Source of the DNA: an uncultured Candidatus Saccharibacteria bacterium
GTDB taxonomy: Bacteria; Patescibacteriota; Dojkabacteria; J137
Reading direction: 5' to 3'
Length of the DNA: 64,000 bases
NCBI GenBank assembly: GCA_964561155.1
Contig: CAZLOI010000003.1
Span: forward strand, 16,832 to 80,831
The notes below the pieces were generated by a model. The model saw only the letters and a list, made by a program, of their open reading frames with translations, was not told the origin of the DNA and did not search any database. Below are positions 20,122 through 39,993 of the stretch, in pieces (within the stretch, counting starts at the first letter, position 1; each line of letters begins with the position of its first letter). The position numbers and the translations under genes were made by a program.

Positions 20122-21234
20122 ATGACAACCAATTCACGATCTCTAGTCTCAGCACTAACAATATTATTCGTTCTAGCATCACCTCTACTTGGATTTTCAG
20201 AAGTATCTGCAGCTGCGTTAACAAACATGGCAATTGCTGGTACTGGTATTACAGCATCATCTTCTGCAGTAAGTGCAGCAATTACACCAACTATTTCATT
20301 TCAACTTCAAACAGCAGTAGCATCAACTGATACTATAAGAATACTATTCACAGGTAACGGCTCAAATAACGGAGTCACTGTATCTGGTGCAGGACTTGCA
20401 TCAGCAGATATAACAGTTTCAGGGGCATGCTCGGGAACAGTCACACTTGCTGGTACTCCAATAGCTACATCAACCGATAACCCAACATTGTCATTAACAG
20501 GCATTACAGGAACAACAGGTAGTGTTTGCAATGTAATAATTGCTGCATCTGAGCTATCTACAGACTCTGCTGCTGGAAATGTTTCTGTAGCAGTTGCAAC
20601 AAGCGTTGGAGACTTTGGAGCATTCATGTACTACATTGGAGATGCAAACGATGTTTCTGTAACAGCAATTGTTCCACCAACACTTTCATTCGTATTAAGA
20701 AATGCAGCAGATACTGCTGATTTATCACCTGGAGCTACTACTGGAAACAGAGTATGCAGCCTTGGAATCTTACAACTAGCAACAACTCCTGTACCTAGTA
20801 CTGGTGTTAATGGTTGCCAATACCGAATAAGAATTGCTACAAACGCTACTTCTGGATACGCAGTTAACTATCTATCAGATTCTGCAGATACCTCCGGCGG
20901 AGGCTTCGAAAGACTTGCTAAGAGTACAACTGTAAATATCCCAAATGTTTCAAATGATCCATTAACATCTAACAATGGTTATGGAGCTAGACTAACTCAA
21001 GTTTCAGCTGGACACACTAGAGGCGCTACTTTCACAGGTACTGCTGCTAACTATTTCCCAATAACCGCTAGTACTTCTACCGCAATGTATTCAAGTTCAG
21101 GACCACTAGCTCCTGGTGCTGCTCCAGATACAACTAACACCTCTCTAATTGAGCATGGTGCAAGAATAGCAGCCTCTCAAGAAGTAGGTAACTATGCTCA
21201 CGTTGTTACTTACACAGTCACAGCAACTTTCTAG
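20122..21234 (+). CDS. Secreted Thr/Ser/Ala/Gly-rich surface protein, paralog 1 of 3
   Basis: Signal peptide ...GFSEVSAA/ALT; conserved blocks DSAAGNVS, YYIGDANDVSVTAIVPPTLSFV, NRVCSLGILQLATTP, C-terminus EVGNYAHVVTYTVTATF. Confidence 0.6.
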   Translation: MTTNSRSLVSALTILFVLASPLLGFSEVSAAALTNMAIAGTGITASSSAVSAAITPTISFQLQTAVASTDTIRILFTGNGSNNGVTVSGAGLASADITVSGACSGTVTLAGTPIATSTDNPTLSLTGITGTTGSVCNVIIAASELSTDSAAGNVSVAVATSVGDFGAFMYYIGDANDVSVTAIVPPTLSFVLRNAADTADLSPGATTGNRVCSLGILQLATTPVPSTGVNGCQYRIRIATNATSGYAVNYLSDSADTSGGGFERLAKSTTVNIPNVSNDPLTSNNGYGARLTQVSAGHTRGATFTGTAANYFPITASTSTAMYSSSGPLAPGAAPDTTNTSLIEHGARIAASQEVGNYAHVVTYTVTATF

Positions 21235-21343
21235 TATAAGTATCAATTGATCATCAATTTATTACTAGAAAGACTAGCAAAGTAGTAGTATTAAAATAGA
21301 AAAAGAGTAAACTAAAATTGATATAAAACAACTTATAAAAAAC

Positions 21344-22468
21344 ATGAAAAACTATCAAGGAAAGGCAATTAATACATTAGTAATAGCATTCACATTGCTT
21401 AGTCCATTTACTGGATTCTTTAATGTATCTGCTGCTGCCCTAACTGCAATGAGTATATCTGGAACTGGTATTACAACTAACTCGTCTGCTGTAAGTGCTG
21501 CAATTACTCCAACATTCAACTTCACATTGGCAACAGCTGTTGGACCAACAGAAACAATTCAGATTACTTTCGTTGGTAACGGATCAAATAATGGAATAAC
21601 AGTTTCAGATGTTACAGGTCTTGCCTCAGCAGATATAACAGCAGGCGGAGTATGTTCTGGTTCAGTTACACTAGCTGGATCACCAATAGCTCAAAATACA
21701 GATAATCCAACTCTTTCTATAACTGGAGTTACTTGTACTACAGGTGCTGCAACATTAGCTATAGCAGCTTCCCAAGTATCTACAGATAGTGCTGCTGGTA
21801 ATGTTTCAATAGCAATTCTTGTAACAAGTGCCACTGGTGACTACGGTACATTTCTTTACTACATTGGAGATTCAAACGATGTTTCTGTAACAGCTATTGT
21901 TCCTCCAACTCTATCTTTTGTTATTCGAAATGGTGCAGATACATCTGATCTTTCACCAGGTGCAACAACAGGAAACAGAGTATGTAGTTTGGGTATCTTA
22001 CAATTAGCAACAACACCAACCCCATCCTCAGGTATAAACGGTTGTCAGTATAGATTTAGAATTGCTACTAACGCTACCTCAGGTTACGCTGTTTCATATC
22101 TCTCAAACTCTGCAGATACTGGTGGAGGTGCTTACGATAGACTTGCAAAGAATACAACTGTAAGTATTGCTAATGTCGCTGGTGGAGGAGATCCCTTATC
22201 TTCAAACGCAGGTTACGGAGTAAGATTGACTCAAGTTTCAGCAGGTCATGCAAGAGGTGCAACATTTACAGGTACAGCATCAAACTACTTCATAATTACA
22301 GCTAACACTGCAACTGCAATGTATAATAGTACTGGACCATTGGCTCCAGCTACTGCACCAGACACTACAAATACTTCTCTTATTGAACACGGTACTAGAA
22401 TAACCGCAGCTCAAGAAGTAGGTAACTATTCACACATAGTGACCTATACGGTAACAGCAACCTTCTAA
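21344..22468 (+). CDS. Secreted Thr/Ser/Ala/Gly-rich surface protein, paralog 2 of 3
   Basis: Same architecture and conserved blocks as paralog 1; C-terminus EVGNYSHIVTYTVTATF. Confidence 0.6.
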   Translation: MKNYQGKAINTLVIAFTLLSPFTGFFNVSAAALTAMSISGTGITTNSSAVSAAITPTFNFTLATAVGPTETIQITFVGNGSNNGITVSDVTGLASADITAGGVCSGSVTLAGSPIAQNTDNPTLSITGVTCTTGAATLAIAASQVSTDSAAGNVSIAILVTSATGDYGTFLYYIGDSNDVSVTAIVPPTLSFVIRNGADTSDLSPGATTGNRVCSLGILQLATTPTPSSGINGCQYRFRIATNATSGYAVSYLSNSADTGGGAYDRLAKNTTVSIANVAGGGDPLSSNAGYGVRLTQVSAGHARGATFTGTASNYFIITANTATAMYNSTGPLAPATAPDTTNTSLIEHGTRITAAQEVGNYSHIVTYTVTATF

Positions 22469-22478
22469 ATTCATGCTA

Positions 22479-22514
22479 CTTGACACCGACATTTAGAAAT
22501 GATTGAATGTTAAG
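22479..22514 (+). promoter_or_regulatory. Conserved upstream element (copy B), about 57 nt upstream of paralog 3
   Basis: CTTGACACCGACATTTAGAAATGATTGAATGTTAAG. Confidence 0.35.
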
Positions 22515-22570
22515 TAAGCCGATTTGGAAAATACTATTTACCTATTCCGAAATCTGATACACTAAAATAT

Positions 22571-23671
22571 ATGAAAAAATCAGTTGCACTCTTTACTATA
22601 GTTACGCTCTTCTTAACTCCATTTGCAGGATTCTTTAATGTCTCTGCTGCTGGAATTACATCAATGAGTATCACAGGAACTAATATTACATCTAACTCAT
22701 CTGCAGTCAGTACTGCAATTACACCTACTATAAACTTTACCTTAGCAACAGCTGTTGGACCAACTGAACCAATTCAACTTACATTTGCAGGTAACGGATC
22801 AAACAATGGAATTACAGTCTCAGATGCTGCAGGTCTTGCTTCAGCAGATATTACAGCTGGTGGTGTATGTTCAGGAACAGTCACACTAGCAGGTACTCCA
22901 ATTGCACAAAATACAGATAACCCAACACTTTCACTGACTGGAATAACATGTACAACAGGAGCAGCTACAATAACAATTGCAGTTTCAAATGTTTCAACAG
23001 ATTCTGCAGCTGGAAACCTTTCTGTAGGAATTACTACTGGATCTGGAGACTTCGGATCATTTCTCTACTACATTGGAGATGCTAACGATGTTTCAGTTAC
23101 AGCAATCGTTCCACCTACACTATCATTCGTTTTAAGAAACTCAGCAGATACAGCAGATCTAACACCAGGTACAACTGCAGGTGTTAGAGTTTGTAGTCTT
23201 GGTATCTTACAATTAGCTACAACTCCTGACCCAGGTACTGGTGTTAACGGTTGTATGTATAGATTAAGAATCGCAACAAACGCTACTTCTGGCTATGCAG
23301 TAAGCTATCTATCTGACTCTGCAGACACTCAAGCTGGTGGTTTTGAAAGACTTGCTAAAGATACAGATACAAATATCCCAAATGTTTCTAATGACCCACT
23401 AACAGCAACTAATGGTTATGGTGCTAGATTAACTCAAGTCTCAGCTGGACACACTAGAGGTGCTACCTTCACTGGTACTGCAGCTAACTATTTCCCAATA
23501 ACTGCTAGTACTGCTACAGCAATGTACAATAGCTCAGGTCCATTAGCTCCTGGAAACCCTCCAGACACTACAAATACATCACTTGTAGAACACGGAGCAA
23601 GGATTTCTGCGTCGCAGGAAGTAGGTAACTATGCTCATGTTGTTACATATACTGTAACTGCTACATTCTAA
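22571..23671 (+). CDS. Secreted Thr/Ser/Ala/Gly-rich surface protein, paralog 3 of 3 (mosaic of 2 and 1)
   Basis: N-terminal half matches paralog 2 (FNFTLATAVGPTE, ITAGGVCSG, PIAQNTDNPTLS, TCTTGAAT); C-terminal half matches paralog 1 (GGFERLAK, NIPNVSNDPLT, GYGARLTQVSAGHTRGATFTGTAANYFPITAST). Confidence 0.6.
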   Translation: MKKSVALFTIVTLFLTPFAGFFNVSAAGITSMSITGTNITSNSSAVSTAITPTINFTLATAVGPTEPIQLTFAGNGSNNGITVSDAAGLASADITAGGVCSGTVTLAGTPIAQNTDNPTLSLTGITCTTGAATITIAVSNVSTDSAAGNLSVGITTGSGDFGSFLYYIGDANDVSVTAIVPPTLSFVLRNSADTADLTPGTTAGVRVCSLGILQLATTPDPGTGVNGCMYRLRIATNATSGYAVSYLSDSADTQAGGFERLAKDTDTNIPNVSNDPLTATNGYGARLTQVSAGHTRGATFTGTAANYFPITASTATAMYNSSGPLAPGNPPDTTNTSLVEHGARISASQEVGNYAHVVTYTVTATF

Positions 23672-23765: not shown

Positions 23766-24872
23766 ATGAAGTCTTTAAATATAGGTTTGTTGGTTCTCGT
23801 ACTAACTTCAACCGTTTCCCCATTTATCCAATTAGTATCAGCTCAAGAAGGTGTTTATGGTCCAATTATCAATGCAACTACATTTGAGTATGTTGTAGAG
23901 AAAGGTTCGACTATTACCGATTCATTTGAAGTACGGCATGACTATCAGGATGCAAATTTTATTGCAACTTTCTACCCAACAGCTGTAGATTTCACTGCAG
24001 ATGGAGAAAGTGGAACACCTGTATTCCTAGACAAGACAAGATCTAAGGGTAAATCATCATTAGAAGACTGGATTACACCAATAACAAGATCTATTACAAT
24101 ATCTGAACTTGGAGATACAGCACTTGTTGAATTTGAAATTACCGTCCCAATCGATGCAGAACCTGGATCATATACAGCAGGTCTTTTGCTTTCAGACTCA
24201 GAGTTTGACCCTCAAGCAGGACCAAACCAAGTAGCATTGGAATCAAGATTAGGTCCGTTAATCTTTGTAACAGTACCTGGAAACATTCAATCAAATCTAG
24301 AAGTTCTTAGCTTTGAAGCTGTAGATATATATGGAAATGCTCCTTTCTTAGGAATTTTTGAATACCACCCTATCGATTTCAAGCTTACACTAAAGAATGG
24401 TGGTAACGTATACATGACACCAGGAGGAACAATCTCTGTTCACCAAGGTGATCTTGCAAAGTCATCTTTTGTTATTCCAAATCTAAATGAAGACAAAGGT
24501 TCTATTTTAGCTGGTACAACTAGATCATATTTGAATCAATGGAATGATTCTGCATTTAGAATGAAATCTGAAATAGATACCAGCACAGGTCAAACAAACT
24601 ATAGCTTCGATTTCCACCCTGAATCATTAAACAAGATACGAGTTGGTAGATATACAGCTACTCTGCAACTATTCTATCGAGACAAAGCTACTGGTGAGAA
24701 TATTAGAATGGATTATGATATTCATTTCTGGATTATTCCTTGGAAAGCAATCCTATTAATCATTGCCCTAATCGTAGGATACTTCTTAATCAAGAAAGCA
24801 ATTAGGAACAGAAGAAACTCTCTTAAGAAATCTAAGAACGGACAGAGAATGATTGGTCAACGTGTTGTCTAA
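23766..24872 (+). CDS. DUF916-like cell-surface protein with C-terminal TM anchor and basic tail
   Basis: Signal peptide, about 300-aa beta-rich ectodomain, TM WKAILLIIALIVGYFLI, then KKAIRNRRNSLKKSK. Confidence 0.45.
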   Translation: MKSLNIGLLVLVLTSTVSPFIQLVSAQEGVYGPIINATTFEYVVEKGSTITDSFEVRHDYQDANFIATFYPTAVDFTADGESGTPVFLDKTRSKGKSSLEDWITPITRSITISELGDTALVEFEITVPIDAEPGSYTAGLLLSDSEFDPQAGPNQVALESRLGPLIFVTVPGNIQSNLEVLSFEAVDIYGNAPFLGIFEYHPIDFKLTLKNGGNVYMTPGGTISVHQGDLAKSSFVIPNLNEDKGSILAGTTRSYLNQWNDSAFRMKSEIDTSTGQTNYSFDFHPESLNKIRVGRYTATLQLFYRDKATGENIRMDYDIHFWIIPWKAILLIIALIVGYFLIKKAIRNRRNSLKKSKNGQRMIGQRVV

Positions 24873-24929
24873 TTCTTCGTAATATTTAGATCTTGCTCTT
24901 TGTACTACTAACTATTAAACTAGGTTAGT

Positions 24930-26495
24930 ATGAAGAGCAATTTCTATAAATTTAAAATCACATTCGCAATTATTTTCGGTACCCTACTTTCTATATCCCC
25001 ATTCAATCCAGTTAGATTAACAAATCCTAAAGATACGCTTGAGGTTTGTGCTCAGGATATTGGCTGGGAGGACTTAGGAACTGGTGTAAGTTGTGTTCCA
25101 AACTATTCAAGCTGTGGTTCAGGATTTAACATACTTGAAAGTGCTCTAGGAGCTAGATATGTAAATGGAATATCTCAATCACAACTTATTTCAAGTCTAG
25201 AAGCTAGTTATGGCACTGATATCAATCGAATTTGTACAACAGAGAACTTTTCTGACATAACTATACGTTGGATGACTGGGGGTGAATACAATGCTGCTCA
25301 GACGCAGAATATACCTAGCGTTGGTGATACACTTTCTGGTAAAGCAATACCTAGATTTTGTCCTGCAGGCTGGCAGGCACAGATTGGAACACAAAGATTC
25401 AACTTTGCTACTGGATACCCTAGTGGATGTTGTCCAACAGGATTTAAATTTGTAAACGTTGCAGAGCAACAAGACCCCAGTGCTTCACAAAATGGAGTTT
25501 GTTGTCGACTTCCTACTGTTTCAGGAGTAGGTACGCCTCACAAATATGCAACATCTGAATTTGGAGGTACGCTTGAAATTGCAGGCTGTTACGACGAAAA
25601 TGAAAACTTGATCTATGCAGTAGATGATGCTGAAAGCCAATCACCTTCCAGAGACTACAGTACTCTTGCTGATGCTATAGAAGCTGCTGAAGAAGGAAAT
25701 ATTATTGTTGGAATTAAGCAGACTGCAGGAGGGTACAACCCAAGTGTTAGTTTTGCAGAATCAAGTGGAAATAGCACAACAGTAGTTAAGCCACAACTTG
25801 GATTAGGCTTTGGGTTGGCATTCCCTGGGAATATAAACACTATTGCAGAAAGCAAACTTAGTAAAGAAAGATGTAGAAATAATGTTGGTTGTTTTATCTC
25901 GTCTGCAGGCATAGTGTCACCTAGAAATATAGTTGGCAGCGATGGTGTTAATGTTTTTGATAATCCTAGTAATAGCTCACTGACTTGTGAGAGATGCTTC
26001 AGTCCTGGAGAACCAGTAGAAGTTGATACTACAACGAACCTTCTAAGTATTTGTGATCCAACAGCACCGAATGCAATTCGAGAACAACCACTATGTAACT
26101 CCTCAGTTATAGACACCATAGCTTGTCTTGGTGGATCCAATTCTACTAGTCAAAATGCTAACTCCGATGGAGTCGGTAGTACAAACTACGATCTTTGTTG
26201 TGCTTGTAGAGTACAAGGAGGCGTGTGGACTGGAATAGGTTGTACCGATACAACTCCTGCAGGCTTAATTACAGGCCTGATCCGAATCGTCTACGGAGTC
26301 ATGGGTGGTGTTGCTTTAATCATGCTAATCTATGCAGGTATTATGTACCAAACAGGAAATGAAGCTAACGTAAAGCAAGCTAGAGAGAGTATTATAAGAA
26401 CTATCACGGGATTAATCGTACTAACATTTAGTATCTTGATATTAAGGATCATTGGAATCAATGTTCTAGATATATTACCTTCTGGGAGTATTTAA
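24930..26495 (+). CDS. Cys-rich secreted protein (about 30 Cys) with C-terminal two-helix membrane hairpin resembling VirB2/TrbC pilin topology
   Basis: N-terminal signal/TM; CC, CxxC and CxC clusters (GCCPTGFKF, GVCCRLP, LCCACRV) with no CxxCH; C-terminus LIRIVYGVMGGVALIMLIYAGIMY-QTGNEANVKQARESIIR-TITGLIVLTFSILIL. Confidence 0.5.
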   Translation: MKSNFYKFKITFAIIFGTLLSISPFNPVRLTNPKDTLEVCAQDIGWEDLGTGVSCVPNYSSCGSGFNILESALGARYVNGISQSQLISSLEASYGTDINRICTTENFSDITIRWMTGGEYNAAQTQNIPSVGDTLSGKAIPRFCPAGWQAQIGTQRFNFATGYPSGCCPTGFKFVNVAEQQDPSASQNGVCCRLPTVSGVGTPHKYATSEFGGTLEIAGCYDENENLIYAVDDAESQSPSRDYSTLADAIEAAEEGNIIVGIKQTAGGYNPSVSFAESSGNSTTVVKPQLGLGFGLAFPGNINTIAESKLSKERCRNNVGCFISSAGIVSPRNIVGSDGVNVFDNPSNSSLTCERCFSPGEPVEVDTTTNLLSICDPTAPNAIREQPLCNSSVIDTIACLGGSNSTSQNANSDGVGSTNYDLCCACRVQGGVWTGIGCTDTTPAGLITGLIRIVYGVMGGVALIMLIYAGIMYQTGNEANVKQARESIIRTITGLIVLTFSILILRIIGINVLDILPSGSI

Positions 26496-34849: not shown

Positions 34850-34920
34850 TTGCGGGACTAGGATTCGAACCTAGACAAGCAGCTTCAAAGGCTGCGGTCC
34901 TACCATTAGACGATCCCGCA
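34850..34920 (-). tRNA. tRNA-Gln (anticodon TTG), U1-A72 pair, no encoded CCA
   Basis: Hand-folded cloverleaf: acceptor TGCGGGA/TCCCGCA, anticodon stem GCAGC/GCTGC with loop CTTTGAA, T-arm CTAGG-TTCGAAT-CCTAG. Confidence 0.8.
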
Positions 34921-35034: not shown

Positions 35035-35649
35035 TTATTGTCTGGAAACCAGGGTCACAAGACCATTATAGACTGGTACTAAATCATGACTACCTATGCT
35101 TGTAGAGTGACTTCCTTTCGGGAACAAAGGATCAACACAGAAATACTTATTCTTTGCGCTATCAAAATATACAACCACTAGATGCCTGCTTTCACTAGGT
35201 AACATTACTGATACCATTGCATACTCGAATTCACCATCCTTCAATTTGTTAAAAACTTCTTCCAATGATATATCTTCAAAGTATTTTGCTTTTAAATCAT
35301 ATAGTCTAAATAGGATCTCGGATATTCTATGGTCATAACCTGCTTTCAAGCTGAACGCAGGCTGGAAAGTTTGATCAGGACCACAAATATAAAATGGTTC
35401 AGAATAAACTTCTTCTGCAGCGCCAAGAGTTATAGGTAAGGTGATCCCACTCTCTAAGTAGTCTCTTTTAGCTACTGCTAGACGATTTTTATGAAGTGCA
35501 CTTAGAAGCTCTACTATTTGTAATGGTAACACTGCAGTCTGAGTCAATTCAGTAACTATCATTGCTACACAGCAAACACCACAGGTAGCTTTTTTCAGAT
35601 CATCATTTTCGAAACTGTCATGTTGATTATAGAAGCTTGATTCTTTCAT
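35035..35649 (-). CDS. Standalone papain-fold C39-like cysteine peptidase domain protein
   Basis: KKATCGVCCVAMIV resembles the C39 Cys motif (DCGxAxLxMI); RHLVVVY...FCVDP resembles the C39 His motif (HFVVL...ADP). Confidence 0.5.
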   Translation of the reverse strand: MKESSFYNQHDSFENDDLKKATCGVCCVAMIVTELTQTAVLPLQIVELLSALHKNRLAVAKRDYLESGITLPITLGAAEEVYSEPFYICGPDQTFQPAFSLKAGYDHRISEILFRLYDLKAKYFEDISLEEVFNKLKDGEFEYAMVSVMLPSESRHLVVVYFDSAKNKYFCVDPLFPKGSHSTSIGSHDLVPVYNGLVTLVSRQ

Positions 35650-36535
35650 CTTTATCTAGTTGATTAAGAATATAATTTGCTAAATGCTTATTGGCCTCGT
35701 GTCCTGGTTTAAGAACCTCGAATCTTCCGATTAAGGCTGCACCTACAAGACCTAAATCTCCAATCATGTCGAGTATCTTATGCCTCACTAACTCTGTATC
35801 ATTTTTTAACGGAGTGATGAATTTATCTTTATTGAATACTATTATGGGTGAGAGCGATGGATCATCCGAAATACCTGGAAATATCTTCTTAACATTCTGC
35901 CAGGCTACACCTTCGTCATCCAATTCAGATCTCATAAAAGATCTTGAAGGAGATATATACCCCAAGTAATTTTCTTTATTAACAACTACTGAATATGATT
36001 GTTTTCCAATTATATTATTAAAATCGATAGTAGCGTTAATTTCATAATAGTCCGAAGGTATTACACGAATATGGGTATCTGTGCTTTCATAGGTAATTTC
36101 TACCTCGTTTGTACAAACAATAGAATGCCGAGCTTGCTCCTGTTGTTTAAGTCCTGCATTTGCTATGAATCTACAGAACTCTTCGGAACTGCTACTTAGA
36201 AATGGTACTTGTCCATTACATAGATCAATGTAGATATTGTCTATGCCCATTCCTCTAATTGCCGAGATAATGTGTTCAATCGTTTTCACCTCTATACCAT
36301 TGGAAGTAAGAGAGGTAGTGTGTGTATATCCATCATCTTTTAGATTTCCGATTACCGCTTTTATTTCCATATTATTAACACTGAAGACAATCCCAGTATC
36401 ACAAGGTGCCGGGCTAAATATAGCCTTACACGTTTCTTTTGAATAAGCAGAGAACCCTGACATCTCAATTGCTAGATCTATCGTCATCTGCTTGGTATTT
36501 GTTTCAATTAATTTGAAAGATTTCATATTATGCAT
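35627..36535 (-). CDS. LpxC-like zinc-dependent N-acetylglucosamine deacetylase
   Basis: TIEHIISAI, VRHKILDMIGDLGLVG and PGHEANKH match the LpxC zinc-ligand and active-site motifs (HKxLD, GH). Confidence 0.75.
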   Translation of the reverse strand: MHNMKSFKLIETNTKQMTIDLAIEMSGFSAYSKETCKAIFSPAPCDTGIVFSVNNMEIKAVIGNLKDDGYTHTTSLTSNGIEVKTIEHIISAIRGMGIDNIYIDLCNGQVPFLSSSSEEFCRFIANAGLKQQEQARHSIVCTNEVEITYESTDTHIRVIPSDYYEINATIDFNNIIGKQSYSVVVNKENYLGYISPSRSFMRSELDDEGVAWQNVKKIFPGISDDPSLSPIIVFNKDKFITPLKNDTELVRHKILDMIGDLGLVGAALIGRFEVLKPGHEANKHLANYILNQLDKDERIKLL

Positions 36536-37424
36536 CTATAAAACATAGTGGGTTTGGGTGTACTAATCTAATACCTACTGTATCTACTATTGCTGTCACA
36601 TCGAATAATCCTCTGGTGACAACTCGACCACCATAATCACATTGCCTAAATCCTCCTCCAAGTGCAATAGAATATGCTCCATCCGTAGCAGACCCCCATT
36701 GGCCTCCAGGATTCCTAGTATGTCCCAGAGCAAAAATAGAAACATTACCTGTTGCGTGATGTAGACCCAGATGATTAGTTGGAACTTCATTAGAATCTAC
36801 AGGTAAAGTTCCTCCTTCGTCTCCATATTCTTTGTCGAATGCGTTAAAGCTGTTCTGTTTACCTTTGATAGGTTTGCCATCTTGTTGATATGGATACTTC
36901 CAATGTTCAGGAGCAGCAAAGGCGACATATTCTGGCTCGGTCGGTAGACGGAAATTCAATCCAGATCGTTTATTCAACCACATACAATATGATATTGCTT
37001 TGCCATAAGTAAGACAAGTTACTGGATGTCTATCACCAGGTGATGTTGATGGTCGTTTATGACCTGGATCGAACTGTTCGAATTCCTCGTTTGTAACAGT
37101 AAACTTACTTACATAAAAGCTTGGGATATTAATTATCTCTCTAACTGGCGTTTCATTTGCTCGACTTCCCTCCAGTTTACATGGCAAGCCTTTATCTTCA
37201 CCCATGTGAACTTTTGAAGGAGAACATAATACAAAGCCTTGTGCTGTTAAAGCTTCTGCTATTTTATGGGCTTCTTGTGTTGAAGTTAATTCCAAAGTTC
37301 TTAGTAGTTGTTGCTCTCTCCAACTCAATCTTTGAGCAAAAACATTAATTTGCTCTGCATAGTCTAATAGATTTGGCTTACTGGTTACTTCATTCATGAG
37401 ATGATAATACATCTCTAAATGCAA
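36528..37424 (-). CDS. FGE-sulfatase (SUMF1/EgtB/PvdO) fold protein
   Basis: VTNEEFEQF, HPVTCLTYGKAISYCMWL and RLPTEPEYVAFAA match formylglycine-generating-enzyme family motifs. Confidence 0.7.
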   Translation of the reverse strand: MHLEMYYHLMNEVTSKPNLLDYAEQINVFAQRLSWREQQLLRTLELTSTQEAHKIAEALTAQGFVLCSPSKVHMGEDKGLPCKLEGSRANETPVREIINIPSFYVSKFTVTNEEFEQFDPGHKRPSTSPGDRHPVTCLTYGKAISYCMWLNKRSGLNFRLPTEPEYVAFAAPEHWKYPYQQDGKPIKGKQNSFNAFDKEYGDEGGTLPVDSNEVPTNHLGLHHATGNVSIFALGHTRNPGGQWGSATDGAYSIALGGGFRQCDYGGRVVTRGLFDVTAIVDTVGIRLVHPNPLCFIDA

Positions 37425-37470: not shown

Positions 37471-38424
37471 TTAAGTTATCCATATAACTACGTTTCCTTT
37501 CTTGTGACCCGTATCTACATGTTTATGAGCTTCTACTATCTCCTCTAGCTTGTAAACTCTATCTATAACCACTTTCAATTTCCCAGAAGTAACTAATTCT
37601 AGTAAAAAAACTAAATCTTCTTTTCTTTCTGGTGCAGTTCCTTGTACTACATTTTTCCCAGAGAAGATCATGTCCCTTAAACCTGCTACAACAAGAAGCA
37701 AAAGTCCATTTTCATTTAAGCGTTCTTTTGTTTCCCTTATTGGGAGACTTCCAATGGTATCTAGTATTAAGTCATATTTCTGATCCTTTTCAAGAAAGTT
37801 CTCTTTATTGTAATCAATCACATAATCTGCACCCAAGGATTTAACTAGCTCATGATTAGTAGATGAGCAAACCGCAGTAACTTCAGCACCGTAGTATTTT
37901 GCTAATTGTATAGCATTTGTACCAACTGCTCCTGAAGCACCGTTTATCAAAATCTTTTGTCCTTCTTTAATTTTGGCGAGATCTCGAAGGTAGTAAAGAG
38001 CTGTAGTACCACCGAAAGGTAAACCTGCAGCTTCGTTAAAACCTAAGTTTTCAGGCATTTTGACAATCGCCTTGTTCTCAGAAACACTAATATACTCTGC
38101 ATGAGCAGCCATCTTCATACCAGTCATTCCAAATACCGTATCGCCAACTTGAAAACTTTTCACATCCATTCCAACTGCTTCTACGGTACCTGCAAAAGTA
38201 CCTCCTAGTATCTTCTTTCTTGGTTTGAATAACCCAAATACTAGTCTAGCAGGCAAGCTAAAACCTGGTGGGAATTTCGCTCCTCTAACTCTAGAATCAG
38301 ATGTGTTAACTGATGTTGCTGAAATTTTAACAAGTACCTCATCGTCTTTTATTATTGGTTTCTCTACTTCAGAAACATTTACTGCTTCAGGTGGACCATA
38401 GTTTTCGTAAACGGCTGCTTTCAT
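37471..38424 (-). CDS. MDR-superfamily NAD(P)H-dependent quinone oxidoreductase / alcohol dehydrogenase-like
   Basis: GroES-like N-domain, Rossmann motif INGASGAVGTNAIQLAK. Confidence 0.75.
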   Translation of the reverse strand: MKAAVYENYGPPEAVNVSEVEKPIIKDDEVLVKISATSVNTSDSRVRGAKFPPGFSLPARLVFGLFKPRKKILGGTFAGTVEAVGMDVKSFQVGDTVFGMTGMKMAAHAEYISVSENKAIVKMPENLGFNEAAGLPFGGTTALYYLRDLAKIKEGQKILINGASGAVGTNAIQLAKYYGAEVTAVCSSTNHELVKSLGADYVIDYNKENFLEKDQKYDLILDTIGSLPIRETKERLNENGLLLLVVAGLRDMIFSGKNVVQGTAPERKEDLVFLLELVTSGKLKVVIDRVYKLEEIVEAHKHVDTGHKKGNVVIWIT

Positions 38425-38498
38425 TTGTGATTAGGAAAAAAATCTAATTATTAATATTACTTAATGGGAAATCTGGTGTCAAACTGTATGAGTGTATA

Positions 38499-38569
38499 AG
38501 CGAGATACGAGGTTCGAACTCGTGCCATATCCTTGGGAAGGACACGTACTACCACTATACTAATCCCGC
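38499..38569 (-). tRNA. tRNA-Gly (anticodon CCC), discriminator U, no encoded CCA
   Basis: Hand-folded: acceptor GCGGGAT/ATCTCGC, anticodon stem TGTCC/GGATA with loop TTCCCAA, T-arm ACGAG-TTCGAAC-CTCGT. Confidence 0.8.
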
Positions 38570-38859: not shown

Positions 38860-39378
38860 ATGAATCCTGCAATTATTTCTGTTTTAATTTGTGAAGTATT
38901 ATTAATTGTCTTTGCTGTATACCTTATCATTTCTTGGATTAGTCAAACCCCATTCTACCCTTCTTCTACGAAACAGTTGGACAATCTACTTTCTGACCCT
39001 AGTATTTCCTTACCATCAACTATACGTTTTGTTGATATTGGTTCAGGAGATGGACGTTTTGTTATCTGGGCTGCGAGGAAAGGTTTTGAAGCTAGCGGTA
39101 TTGAATACAACCCTTTCTTGAGTATCTGGAGCAAGTTTAAGATATTCGTTAGAAGGTTAAACAATGCGAAGATATATAACGCGGACTTCTATAAGCATGA
39201 TTTCAGTAGTTACAATTTTGCATATATGTATATCTTCTCGGAGCATATGGACAAGATTAAAGACAAGCTTCTTAAGGAGATGGATAAGGGTAGTATTATA
39301 GTTACGAATTCATTTAAATTCAGTAATTTGGAGCCAGATGCTAAAATAGGCAAGTATAATATTTACTACATTAAGTAA
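38860..39378 (+). CDS. Class I SAM-dependent methyltransferase with N-terminal TM segment
   Basis: Motif I VDIGSGDGRFV. Confidence 0.55.
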   Translation: MNPAIISVLICEVLLIVFAVYLIISWISQTPFYPSSTKQLDNLLSDPSISLPSTIRFVDIGSGDGRFVIWAARKGFEASGIEYNPFLSIWSKFKIFVRRLNNAKIYNADFYKHDFSSYNFAYMYIFSEHMDKIKDKLLKEMDKGSIIVTNSFKFSNLEPDAKIGKYNIYYIK

Positions 39379-39411
39379 TAGCGATTAGCTAGCACTTGTT
39401 AAGTATAGAAA

Positions 39412-39993
39412 ATGAGATTATTTATAGCGTTGTATCCACCGCAAAGCTACCTTAAGTACATTACTTCGGTAATGCGGGAGTTTGACAAAGAGAAGAGAAA
39501 TCTTAGGAATGTTGCGTTGGAACAGATCCACGTTACTCTAAAGTTTATTGGTTCTGAAGTTAGTGTTCATAGCTACGAAGCTATATTAGACATGCTTAAG
39601 AAGTTCGAAGGACAATATACAAAGCCTGAGATTAAGAGTCATGCAATTAGACTAGGGTTTCCAGGGCAGATTGATCCTAGACACCTTCTAGTTGAGATTG
39701 AATCTACAGATACTCTATTAGAGCTTTCAGATTCTATTCACAAGCTAATTAAGCACTTGGCTCTACGGGATACTATTAAGTGGAAGGACAAGCAGTTTAA
39801 TGAATTCCATGTTTCTATAGCGAAGTTAAAGGACAGTGCATCTTCAACTAAAGGAAAGGATATAAAGAAGATGGCTGCAGCTCTTAGAACAAAGATGCAT
39901 GAACCTTTCTTTCCTGAGGAGATGGTATTGGTTGAAAGTGTGTTTGAAGACAACGTTCCAAAGTACAAGAAACTAGCTAGTATTAGGCTTTAA
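39412..39993 (+). CDS. thpR: RNA 2',3'-cyclic phosphodiesterase (2H family, LigT/ThpR)
   Basis: Two H-x-T/S-x motifs (HVTLKF and HVSIAKL). Confidence 0.7.
   Translation: MRLFIALYPPQSYLKYITSVMREFDKEKRNLRNVALEQIHVTLKFIGSEVSVHSYEAILDMLKKFEGQYTKPEIKSHAIRLGFPGQIDPRHLLVEIESTDTLLELSDSIHKLIKHLALRDTIKWKDKQFNEFHVSIAKLKDSASSTKGKDIKKMAAALRTKMHEPFFPEEMVLVESVFEDNVPKYKKLASIRL

Follow-up and report, generated by a model that had tools for sequence, protein, structure and literature searches.

A stretch of 64,000 nucleotides from an uncultured Candidatus Saccharibacteria bacterium (GTDB lineage Dojkabacteria; contig CAZLOI010000003.1, positions 16,832 to 80,831 of the forward strand), referred to here as the window, carries three tightly packed genes on its minus strand. 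They encode an FGE-sulfatase-fold protein (36528..37424; 298 aa when counted from a TTG codon), a paralogue of the LpxC family of zinc-dependent amidases that is a predicted N-deacylase (35627..36535; 302 aa, with an alternative start at 36526), and a C39_2-like papain-fold cysteine hydrolase (35035..35649; 204 aa). A preliminary description of this DNA had reported these three open reading frames (ORFs) as one operon, and both the ORFs and the tight operon structure were found to be real. However, the conserved unit is not this trio but the pair of the FGE-like and the LpxC-like genes, which are the core components, usually together with a gene for a protein of about 400 aa (p400) and often with a radical SAM gene. 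The C39-like gene is a lineage-specific addition. Very probably, the pair represents a conserved module that functions outside lipid A synthesis. In our preferred reading, to which we assign a probability of about 40%, the window contains a lineage-specific variant of a module specific to Patescibacteria (candidate phyla radiation, CPR), in which an LpxC-family zinc amidase and its FGE-fold partner would form the core and would carry out a cytoplasmic N-deacylation on a molecule of the amino-sugar-phosphate or nucleotide-sugar type.

The genomic contexts of the module were collected by three look-ups and a metagenome scan, and the genes were counted using hidden Markov models and BLAST clustering. 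This census comprised 29 FGE-like, 27 LpxC-like, 21 p400, 8 radical SAM (335 aa), and 4 C39-like genes, the latter confined to the small subclade of the window. In every locus with enough flanking sequence (27 of the 29 FGE loci), the LpxC-like gene adjoined the FGE-like gene, and module neighbors mostly overlapped or abutted. This arrangement exceeds chance, as it recurs in independent contigs and the adjacency was found in all informative loci. Two layouts were observed: either p400, FGE-like and LpxC-like genes are co-directional, or the radical SAM and LpxC-like genes are divergent from the p400 and FGE-like genes. The proximity of the FGE-like and LpxC-like genes has therefore been kept through rearrangement. 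No other gene family recurred around the module, and the flanks varied from locus to locus. The pairwise distances of the FGE-like and of the LpxC-like proteins were correlated with r = 0.92, a value that was reached by none of 2000 permutations in a Mantel test.

To our knowledge, the only known function of LpxC, a major antibiotic target, is that of the committed enzyme in lipid A synthesis. The LpxC-like protein of the window has the full-length fold of this family. It matched PF03331 with 198 bits (residues 16-290 versus profile positions 1-267 of 268), and it shared 30-36% identity with LpxCs of known structure, whose catalytic residues it matched in the alignment. Nevertheless, it scored only 148.1 bits with the lpxC equivalog model TIGR00325, which has a cut-off of 187.25, and a relative at locus L033 scored 141.5 bits. 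Among 5.8 billion proteins, two close relatives were found (95% and 61% identity), after which the identity dropped to 36%. Exact-sequence look-ups of this protein and of the C39-like protein returned no record. The motifs HKxLD and GH, which the preliminary description had named as zinc-ligand and catalytic motifs, aligned with H237/K238/D241 and H264 of P. aeruginosa LpxC, respectively, and an EH motif aligned with E77/H78.

A neighbor-joining tree was calculated from 21 non-redundant FGE-linked CPR sequences and canonical LpxCs. The 21 sequences formed one clade apart from the canonical LpxCs, and the window subclade was nested inside it. Column statistics were determined for the same 21 sequences, including the window protein, and are given in P. 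aeruginosa numbering. The zinc ligands H78, H237, and D241, the general base E77, as well as H264, K238, D245, R189, and F191 are shared with LpxC and were invariant in the CPR clade, while position 190 was T or S. Because the zinc ligands, the base and the catalytic residues have been kept, the protein is very likely a metal-dependent amide hydrolase. F160 was retained in 20 of the 21 sequences. Position 142 is mostly basic in the clade, but the window subclade has T there; we take both positions to belong to the UDP pocket. In contrast, the canonical segment G204-L-A-x-G-G-S-x-[DE]-N-A of Insert II was replaced by R/K-L-P-x-D/N-P-x-x-S-P-I, which is clade-invariant in CPR, and the canonical H19 was replaced by F or Y throughout the clade. 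The region of the G204 segment forms the acyl-chain tunnel of LpxC that accommodates the 3-O-hydroxyacyl chain (PMC11472313). Further clade-specific invariants were H62, T63, W200, T224, and P262, and the window protein has every clade-specific residue (H62, T63, W200, P209, S212, P213, T224, P262). The rebuilding of the acyl-tunnel region argues that the substrate is not UDP-3-O-hydroxyacyl-GlcNAc. Judged from these residues, the LpxC-like protein would still be a metal-dependent amidase, acting on a different, perhaps nucleotide-linked substrate.

The gene content of the window points in the same direction. Peptidoglycan and division genes were present, i.e., those for MurG, an FtsI-type penicillin-binding protein, MraW, and an M23/LysM peptidase. 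As had been noted in the preliminary description, no other lipid A gene was visible: lpxA, lpxD, lpxB, lpxK, and waaA were not found among the scanned ORFs of the window, which included nearly all ORFs with at least 150 aa, and no lpx genes were found in the flanks of 27 related loci. The expectation that this lineage does not make lipopolysaccharide (LPS) agrees with its assignment to Patescibacteria, because CPR have been placed in a monoderm clade (bioRxiv 10.1101/2021.05.31.446380). Thus, the score below the equivalog cut-off, the separate clade, the lack of lipid A genes in the window, and the monoderm lineage support that the LpxC-like gene is probably not a housekeeping lipid A gene; in monoderm CPR, the module protein is paired with an FGE-fold gene instead. 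An 'LpxC' annotation in CPR genomes should not count as evidence of LPS.

A sister paralogue of the LpxC-like proteins, P0004, was found at loci L007/L008 (2016-10864), where its gene directly follows genes for a carbamoyltransferase and a beta-lactamase-fold protein. The surrounding integrative element also carries a conflict system (NB-ARC/WD40 plus Trypsin/Trypco1) and encodes an integrase, a relaxase, and a coupling protein of a type IV secretion system (T4SS). This is another non-lipid-A context for a relative of LpxC.

The partner of the LpxC-like protein matched PF03781 with 74 bits (residues 63-288), in agreement with the FGE fold that had been proposed. An alignment of homologues indicated that the probable start codon is the ATG at 37412 (294 aa) and not the TTG at 37424. 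With a Pfam domain that begins at residue 63, the extension at the N-terminus has a length of about 55-60 aa and not of 90 aa, as originally described. An AlphaFold2 model (pLDDT 78, pTM 0.83) contained a small N-terminal helical region at residues 14-57. The top Foldseek matches of this model were PvdO, CarF, FGE, ToxD, and EgtB, with E values from 1e-11 to 1e-8 (about 1e-9 for the FGE structures). Because these proteins and OvoA were matched about equally well, the fold is certain and the subfamily is new. The family comprises about 45 full-length homologues in the same 5.8 billion proteins, with 45-55% identity and from Patescibacteria where named, and full-length comparison of the window protein with members of the family gave 47-51% identity.

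Comparison with characterized proteins of this fold revealed several differences. FGE contains a catalytic Cu(I)-binding cysteine pair in a C-terminal loop (C336 and C341 in the human enzyme). The FGE-like family shares with FGE the PF03781 fold, and motifs conserved in its N-terminal and central parts could be aligned with FGE, but it is only about 20% identical and appears to have at most one cysteine in the copper loop. The family alignment contained one invariant cysteine (C258 in GGxFRxC) and none five residues further on; an hhalign comparison with the C-terminal segment of human FGE gave a low match probability and ended just before the cysteine. A substrate of the FGE type was also not found nearby: none of the module proteins contained a sulfatase-type C/S-x-P/A-x-R (CxPxR) motif, and no sulfatase was found among the scanned ORFs of the window. 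Unlike EgtB and OvoA, the FGE-like protein does not contain a DinB-type iron-binding domain, as its N-terminal region consists of just about 55-60 aa of short helices, and its score with TIGR04344 (ovoA_Nterm) was 21 bits versus a cut-off of 400 bits. Features of its own are this N-terminal region, which carries an LSxRE motif, the invariant residues C78 and C133, the predicted cytoplasmic location, and the LpxC-like partner. Invariant or near-invariant in the family alignment were C78, C133, C258, H118, H219, H231, and H285. A possible role as target of a diversity-generating retroelement (DGR) was considered and rejected, as the C-terminus is highly conserved and the neighborhoods showed no reverse transcriptase gene.

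The third gene most often found in the wider family, p400, encodes a NAGPA-like protein. PF09992 was matched by 2 of 12 members, with a best E value of 4.7e-8, and the pattern of the C-terminal half (DARP...Q.G...EL...D.GQSSK...GN.HY...WDG..GR) resembles the NAGPA/DUF2233 phosphodiester glycosidases, to which the 'uncovering enzyme' belongs. In contrast to these enzymes, p400 is predicted to be cytoplasmic, and it has diverged so far that most of its members escape detection. The radical SAM partner matched MoaA with 99 bits and viperin models with 62-66 bits, in all cases below the cut-offs. In a scan of the module proteins for segments of 19 residues, none was strongly hydrophobic. There is thus no obvious transmembrane helix, and on this basis the proteins look cytoplasmic.

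Several loci deviated from the common arrangement. The p400 gene was split into two or three ORFs or shortened at the N-terminus at loci L012 (4790-5991), L015 (4867-6008), L031 (4330-5532), L027, and L029 (about 276 aa), and these loci had kept the FGE-like and LpxC-like genes intact. The broken versions could be due to pseudogenization, frameshifting or assembly error. At loci L040-L042 (e.g., L040 6642-7763), an intact LpxC-like gene was found beside a 65-aa C-terminal remnant of the FGE-like protein, without p400. The module seems to be decaying at these loci, which were the sole case of an LpxC-like gene without a full FGE partner. At locus L014 (1-2825 and 7997-12870), the module is located amid genes for a ResIII/DEAD endonuclease, an N6_N4 methylase, a tyrosine integrase, a GIY-YIG protein, and an Mrr nuclease, which suggests that the module can reside in a variable or defense-island region.

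The C39-like protein of the window is predicted to have a papain-like fold with an active site formed by Q9, C23, H156, and D173, so that the fold and the Cys and His motifs described earlier hold and are extended to a Cys-His-Asp triad. Its Pfam scores were below threshold (PF03412, 16.7 versus 22 bits; PF13529, 16.5 versus 24 bits), and 24 of 31 relatives matched PF13529 (Peptidase_C39_2) at E <= 1, with a best value of 4e-12. The core of the AlphaFold2 model was well predicted (overall pLDDT 63), and the papain-fold neighbors included a phytochelatin-synthase-like protein and BtrH-like proteins, while a PDB sequence search with the profile yielded nothing meaningful. Four close relatives were present in the 5.8 billion proteins, and a profile search of 1.84 billion representatives revealed about 30 distant relatives of 205-260 aa. 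Near-invariant in the alignment were C23-G24, P97, G104, D106-H107-R108, H156, and D173-P174, and Q9 was present in most members. Compared with the C39 and C39_2 peptidases of PCAT and ComA, the protein is stand-alone, has only about 205 aa, is predicted to be cytoplasmic and scores below the Pfam thresholds. In addition, it contains an insertion of about 50 residues with the invariant, family-specific GYDHR motif (residues 104-108), and neither an ABC transporter nor a GG-leader peptide gene was found near its gene.

The distant relatives were not linked to FGE or LpxC genes, and therefore the C39-like gene was recruited to the module in this lineage only. When the profiles of p400 and of the C39-like family were compared with each other, no relationship was detected, and the two are therefore not homologous replacements. 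The closest outgroup of the C39-like proteins, P0172 (locus L043, 6001-7874), is encoded by a gene that shares 4 nt with the gene of a murF-type Mur ligase. From this one overlap, the papain-fold family might be suspected to act on peptides of peptidoglycan precursors.

Within the small subclade, the trio is stably maintained. All relatives that were recovered, with identities as low as 48-62%, contained it, and a lack of conservation in relatives, which the preliminary description had named as a refutation, was therefore not observed. The unit of the wider family is the FGE/LpxC pair. The gene order was MDR-FGE-LpxC-C39 at locus L006, FGE-LpxC-C39 without the MDR gene at L001-L005, and LpxC-C39 at the contig end at L009 and L010. 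The nearest large relative was Patescibacteria group bacterium isolate KLAP211, whose genome was also the sole match in a profile scan of genome contigs with the C39-like alignment. The window locus is syntenic with KLAP211 and shares a polyprenyl synthase gene, two helix-turn-helix genes, UbiA, and a histidine kinase gene. DNA comparison showed that the block from 38518 to 35043 is collinear with L006, in which additional DNA is inserted at the two ends near the tRNA genes. Synteny was stable with both L006 and L001. The block is therefore regarded as a stable part of the chromosome and not as a recent island. A mobile island bounded by two tRNA genes was rejected, because the block is syntenic with L006 and the differences are the insertions in L006.

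The junctions between the genes were inspected individually. The stop codon region of the LpxC-like gene overlaps the start of the C39-like gene by 23 nt (junction sequence ...GATAAAGATGAAAGAATCAAGCTTCTATAA), as described before, and this overlap was also found in relatives, with 23 nt in L006 and 38 nt in L001. The N-terminus MKESSF at the start of the C39-like protein was identical in all close homologues. The second overlap that had been described, of 8 nt between the FGE-like gene and the first ATG of the LpxC-like gene, depends on the start codon, as usage of the second in-frame ATG results in a 1-nt gap. As called, the spacing at this position was a 1-nt gap in L006 and 0 nt in L001, and the genes abut regardless of the start codon. 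This arrangement would be compatible with a physical or translational coupling of the module genes.

Which reaction the module might catalyze was considered on the basis of these families. LpxC acts on a UDP-GlcNAc derivative, and the NAGPA family acts on GlcNAc-1-phosphodiesters. The LpxC-like protein would have been re-purposed from lipid A synthesis and would hydrolyze an N-acyl, most likely an N-acetyl, amide, because the zinc site and the acid/base machinery have been kept. Its substrate would most likely be a soluble cytoplasmic molecule of the amino-sugar-1-phosphate or nucleotide-sugar type, because of the LpxC ancestry, the NAGPA-like partner, the nucleotide-type radical SAM protein, and the carbamoyltransferase-linked sister paralogue. 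The FGE-fold protein would be the obligate partner and might serve in substrate recognition, with its C-type-lectin-like fold, or as a single-cysteine redox subunit. The pathway would be completed by a third hydrolase. In most lineages, this would be a NAGPA-like sugar-1-phosphodiester glycosidase, often accompanied by a radical SAM enzyme of the nucleotide type. The lineage of the window would instead employ the C39_2-like protein as a Cys-His-Asp hydrolase or acyl-transferase, which may cleave or re-acylate at the amide/amine stage, and an NAD(P)H-dependent MDR reductase would be an optional extra. The proposed substrate class and roles are put forward tentatively. At slightly below even odds, the FGE-fold and the LpxC-fold proteins might constitute a two-component enzyme, with the first LpxC-family member outside of lipid A synthesis, that makes or dismantles a Patescibacteria-specific amino-sugar-phosphate or nucleotide-derived metabolite and is adapted to different lineages by interchangeable third enzymes. 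Candidates for this metabolite would be a precursor of a cell-surface glycoconjugate, a thiol or cofactor based on glucosamine, or a cell-wall fragment scavenged from the host. By analogy, a metal-dependent N-deacetylase of the GlcNAc type beside an enzyme acting on the amine or amide would resemble LpxC/LpxD, NodB/NodA, MshB/BshB-MshC/BshC, and BtrD/BtrH. Unlike these deacetylate-then-modify pathways, the module does not contain LpxD, NodA, MshC or BshC, and its deacetylase has the LpxC fold and not the LmbE or NodB fold. Cell-wall or glycoconjugate remodeling had been one of three functions considered in the preliminary description, and its glycoconjugate/amino-sugar version fits the wider evidence best of the three.

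The combination of the genes had been regarded as a pathway that has not been described, and this agrees with literature searches on LpxC and Patescibacteria, FGE-sulfatase and LpxC, 'LpxC-like', and FGE and CPR, none of which retrieved a description of the module. The folds are all known, while no description was found of the FGE/LpxC pairing or of a clade of LpxC paralogues in CPR. If the proposal is true, the LpxC fold has a second, unexplored biochemical life, and the module offers a handle on a conserved, unannotated metabolism of CPR, possibly for building of the envelope or scavenging of host-derived amino sugars. The three to four small soluble enzymes are concrete enough for direct expression and assay.

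Several observations weigh against an amino-sugar-phosphate or nucleotide-sugar deacylase. The NAGPA assignment comes from 2 of 12 p400 members, and a PDB sequence search with p400 found nothing. The window lineage contains neither p400 nor the radical SAM gene, and its chemistry may therefore differ from that of the main family. In the 29-locus census, no glycosyltransferase, sugar kinase or transporter was consistently linked to the module. The sparse distribution (about 45 clusters in the 5.8 billion proteins) and the varied flanks also fit an accessory, secondary-metabolite or conflict role. The correlation of FGE and LpxC distances is consistent with co-inheritance, but it may simply mirror a shared species phylogeny. 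The murF adjacency is one case, and two other C39-like relatives are located amid unrelated housekeeping genes. Finally, the several invariant Cys and His residues of the FGE-like protein suggest a catalytic function, possibly on a peptide, and not binding alone.

An unlikely alternative is that the module makes a thiol of low molecular weight, a cofactor or a secondary metabolite. In this case, the LpxC-like protein would be a GlcNAc-deacetylase of the MshB/BshB type, the FGE-fold protein would function like EgtB, OvoA, ToxD or PvdO, and the C39-like protein would be an EgtC-like amidohydrolase or a BtrH-like acyl-transferase. The structural neighbors of the FGE-like protein include the small-molecule enzymes PvdO, ToxD, EgtB, and OvoA, the papain-fold neighbors are phytochelatin-synthase-like and BtrH-like, the window contains an MDR reductase, and a patchy, self-contained cassette of three to four genes is typical of specialized metabolism. 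However, the FGE-like protein has no DinB-type domain and its ovoA_Nterm score is far below the cut-off, no ligase, glycosyltransferase, methyltransferase or pyridoxal phosphate enzyme was consistently linked, and the activity of a NAGPA-like glycosidase would be degradative and not biosynthetic. A specialized small-molecule pathway for a thiol, cofactor or antibiotic is conceivable, and it overlaps with the amino-sugar-phosphate or nucleotide-sugar deacylase that we prefer.

Equally unlikely is a modification of peptides or proteins, similar to the maturation of ribosomally synthesized and post-translationally modified peptides, which had been the second function considered in the preliminary description. 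The FGE-fold protein would oxidize a cysteine or modify another residue of a peptide or protein, the C39-like protein would trim it, and the LpxC-like protein would remove an N-acyl group. This would be in line with the action of true FGEs on peptide cysteines and the invariant C78, C133, and C258 of the family, with the double-glycine leader peptidases being the closest match of the C39-like fold, and with the presence of the radical SAM enzyme in many lineages. The single cysteine in the loop that matches the copper-binding pair of FGE, an alignment that is weak, and the lack of CxPxR-type motifs in module proteins do not fit; the radical SAM protein resembles the nucleotide-acting MoaA and viperin and not the SPASM peptide maturases, and the C39-like protein is missing from most of the family. 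A substrate peptide was also not found. Small ORFs upstream of the FGE-like gene at L015 were considered as precursor peptides and rejected, because they are fragments of the p400 gene. Around at least 30 loci, small ORFs of 20-90 aa were conserved only in trivially identical contigs, so there is no candidate for a precursor peptide, and the small GG-leader peptide genes that had been envisaged did not turn up. No ABC or PCAT transporter was linked, and the module proteins look cytoplasmic.

A conflict, defense or effector module, the third function considered earlier, is quite improbable. The FGE-fold protein would act as sensor, and the amidase, the protease, and a viperin-like radical SAM protein would be enzymatic effectors. 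FGE-fold domains do occur as sensors or effectors in conflict systems and as DGR targets (PMC7159879), the radical SAM partner matched pVip models with 66 bits, the module at L014 has restriction-modification, Mrr, and integrase genes as neighbors, and the distribution is sparse with variable flanks. Against these points, PADLOC-DB v2 matched none of the four window proteins, p400 or p174 (a protein described below), and a scan of IMG/VR viral contigs with the FGE alignment detected no copy. The radical SAM protein scored higher with MoaA and remained under every cut-off, the C-terminus of the FGE-like protein is conserved and not hypervariable, and no reverse transcriptase was seen nearby. 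In addition, the window locus is syntenic with its relatives, its GC content is ordinary, and an NTPase, sensor or toxin architecture was not observed. A residual or genuine lipid A function, i.e., deacetylation of UDP-3-O-acyl-GlcNAc in a cryptic LPS-like pathway encoded elsewhere, is highly improbable, because the full-length LpxC fold with every catalytic residue, in a genome inspected over 64 kb only, is outweighed by the score below the lpxC cut-off, the separate clade with replaced acyl-tunnel motif and H19, the peptidoglycan and division genes without lipid A genes in the window, the monoderm nature of CPR (bioRxiv 10.1101/2021.05.31.446380), and the linkage to FGE-like and never to lpx genes across 27 loci.

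The three genes are preceded on the minus strand by an accessory gene for an MDR-family NAD(P)H oxidoreductase of the quinone-reductase/PIG3-like type (37471..38424; 317 aa). Its position immediately upstream on the same strand was confirmed, and the linkage was found only in the window and the 95%-identical relative L006, while the gene was absent in L001. The protein matched ADH_N, ADH_zinc_N, and ADH_zinc_N_2 of Pfam above threshold and scored 158 bits with TIGR02824, below the cut-off of this model. The block of four genes is flanked by genes for tRNA-Gly (38499-38569) and tRNA-Gln (34850-34920). An Rfam scan at gathering thresholds found four tRNAs and nothing else. A consensus scan revealed a promoter-like site on the minus strand between the tRNA-Gly gene and the start of the MDR gene (38454..38482; TTGACA, 17-nt spacer, TAATAT; 10 of 12 matches). 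As the total number of promoter-like sites was not above that of shuffled sequences, this site is a candidate promoter of a four-gene operon. Intrinsic terminators were not predicted.

Additional differences between the related loci were observed around the trio. At locus L006 (1-1423, compared with 38495-38528 of the window), a DUF4238 gene was inserted beside the tRNA-Gly gene. Copies of about 24-34 bp of the tRNA end were present on either side of it, as if a small integrative element had left its footprint. Between the C39-like gene and the region of tRNA-Gln, two additional genes (for about 285 aa and 264 aa) were found in L006 and L009. A gene pair for a LigT-like 2H-phosphoesterase and a methyltransferase was located on opposite sides of the trio in the window (38860-39993) and in L001 (11590-12689), and a rearrangement or inversion has therefore taken place locally. 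The spot upstream of the FGE-like gene is occupied in L001 by the gene for a protein of 174 aa (p174) with a weak CYTH-like match (E 0.003). At a different site of the window (20122-23671), three tandem paralogues of 370, 374, and 366 aa were found, which were 74-77% identical, had signal-peptide-like N-termini, and yielded no Pfam match. They are followed (23766-26495) by genes for a secreted-looking protein of 368 aa and for a protein of 521 aa with a T4SS-pilin-like C-terminus. The GC content is locally increased in this array (0.39 versus about 0.36), and the encoded proteins are possibly surface proteins or associated with a pilus.

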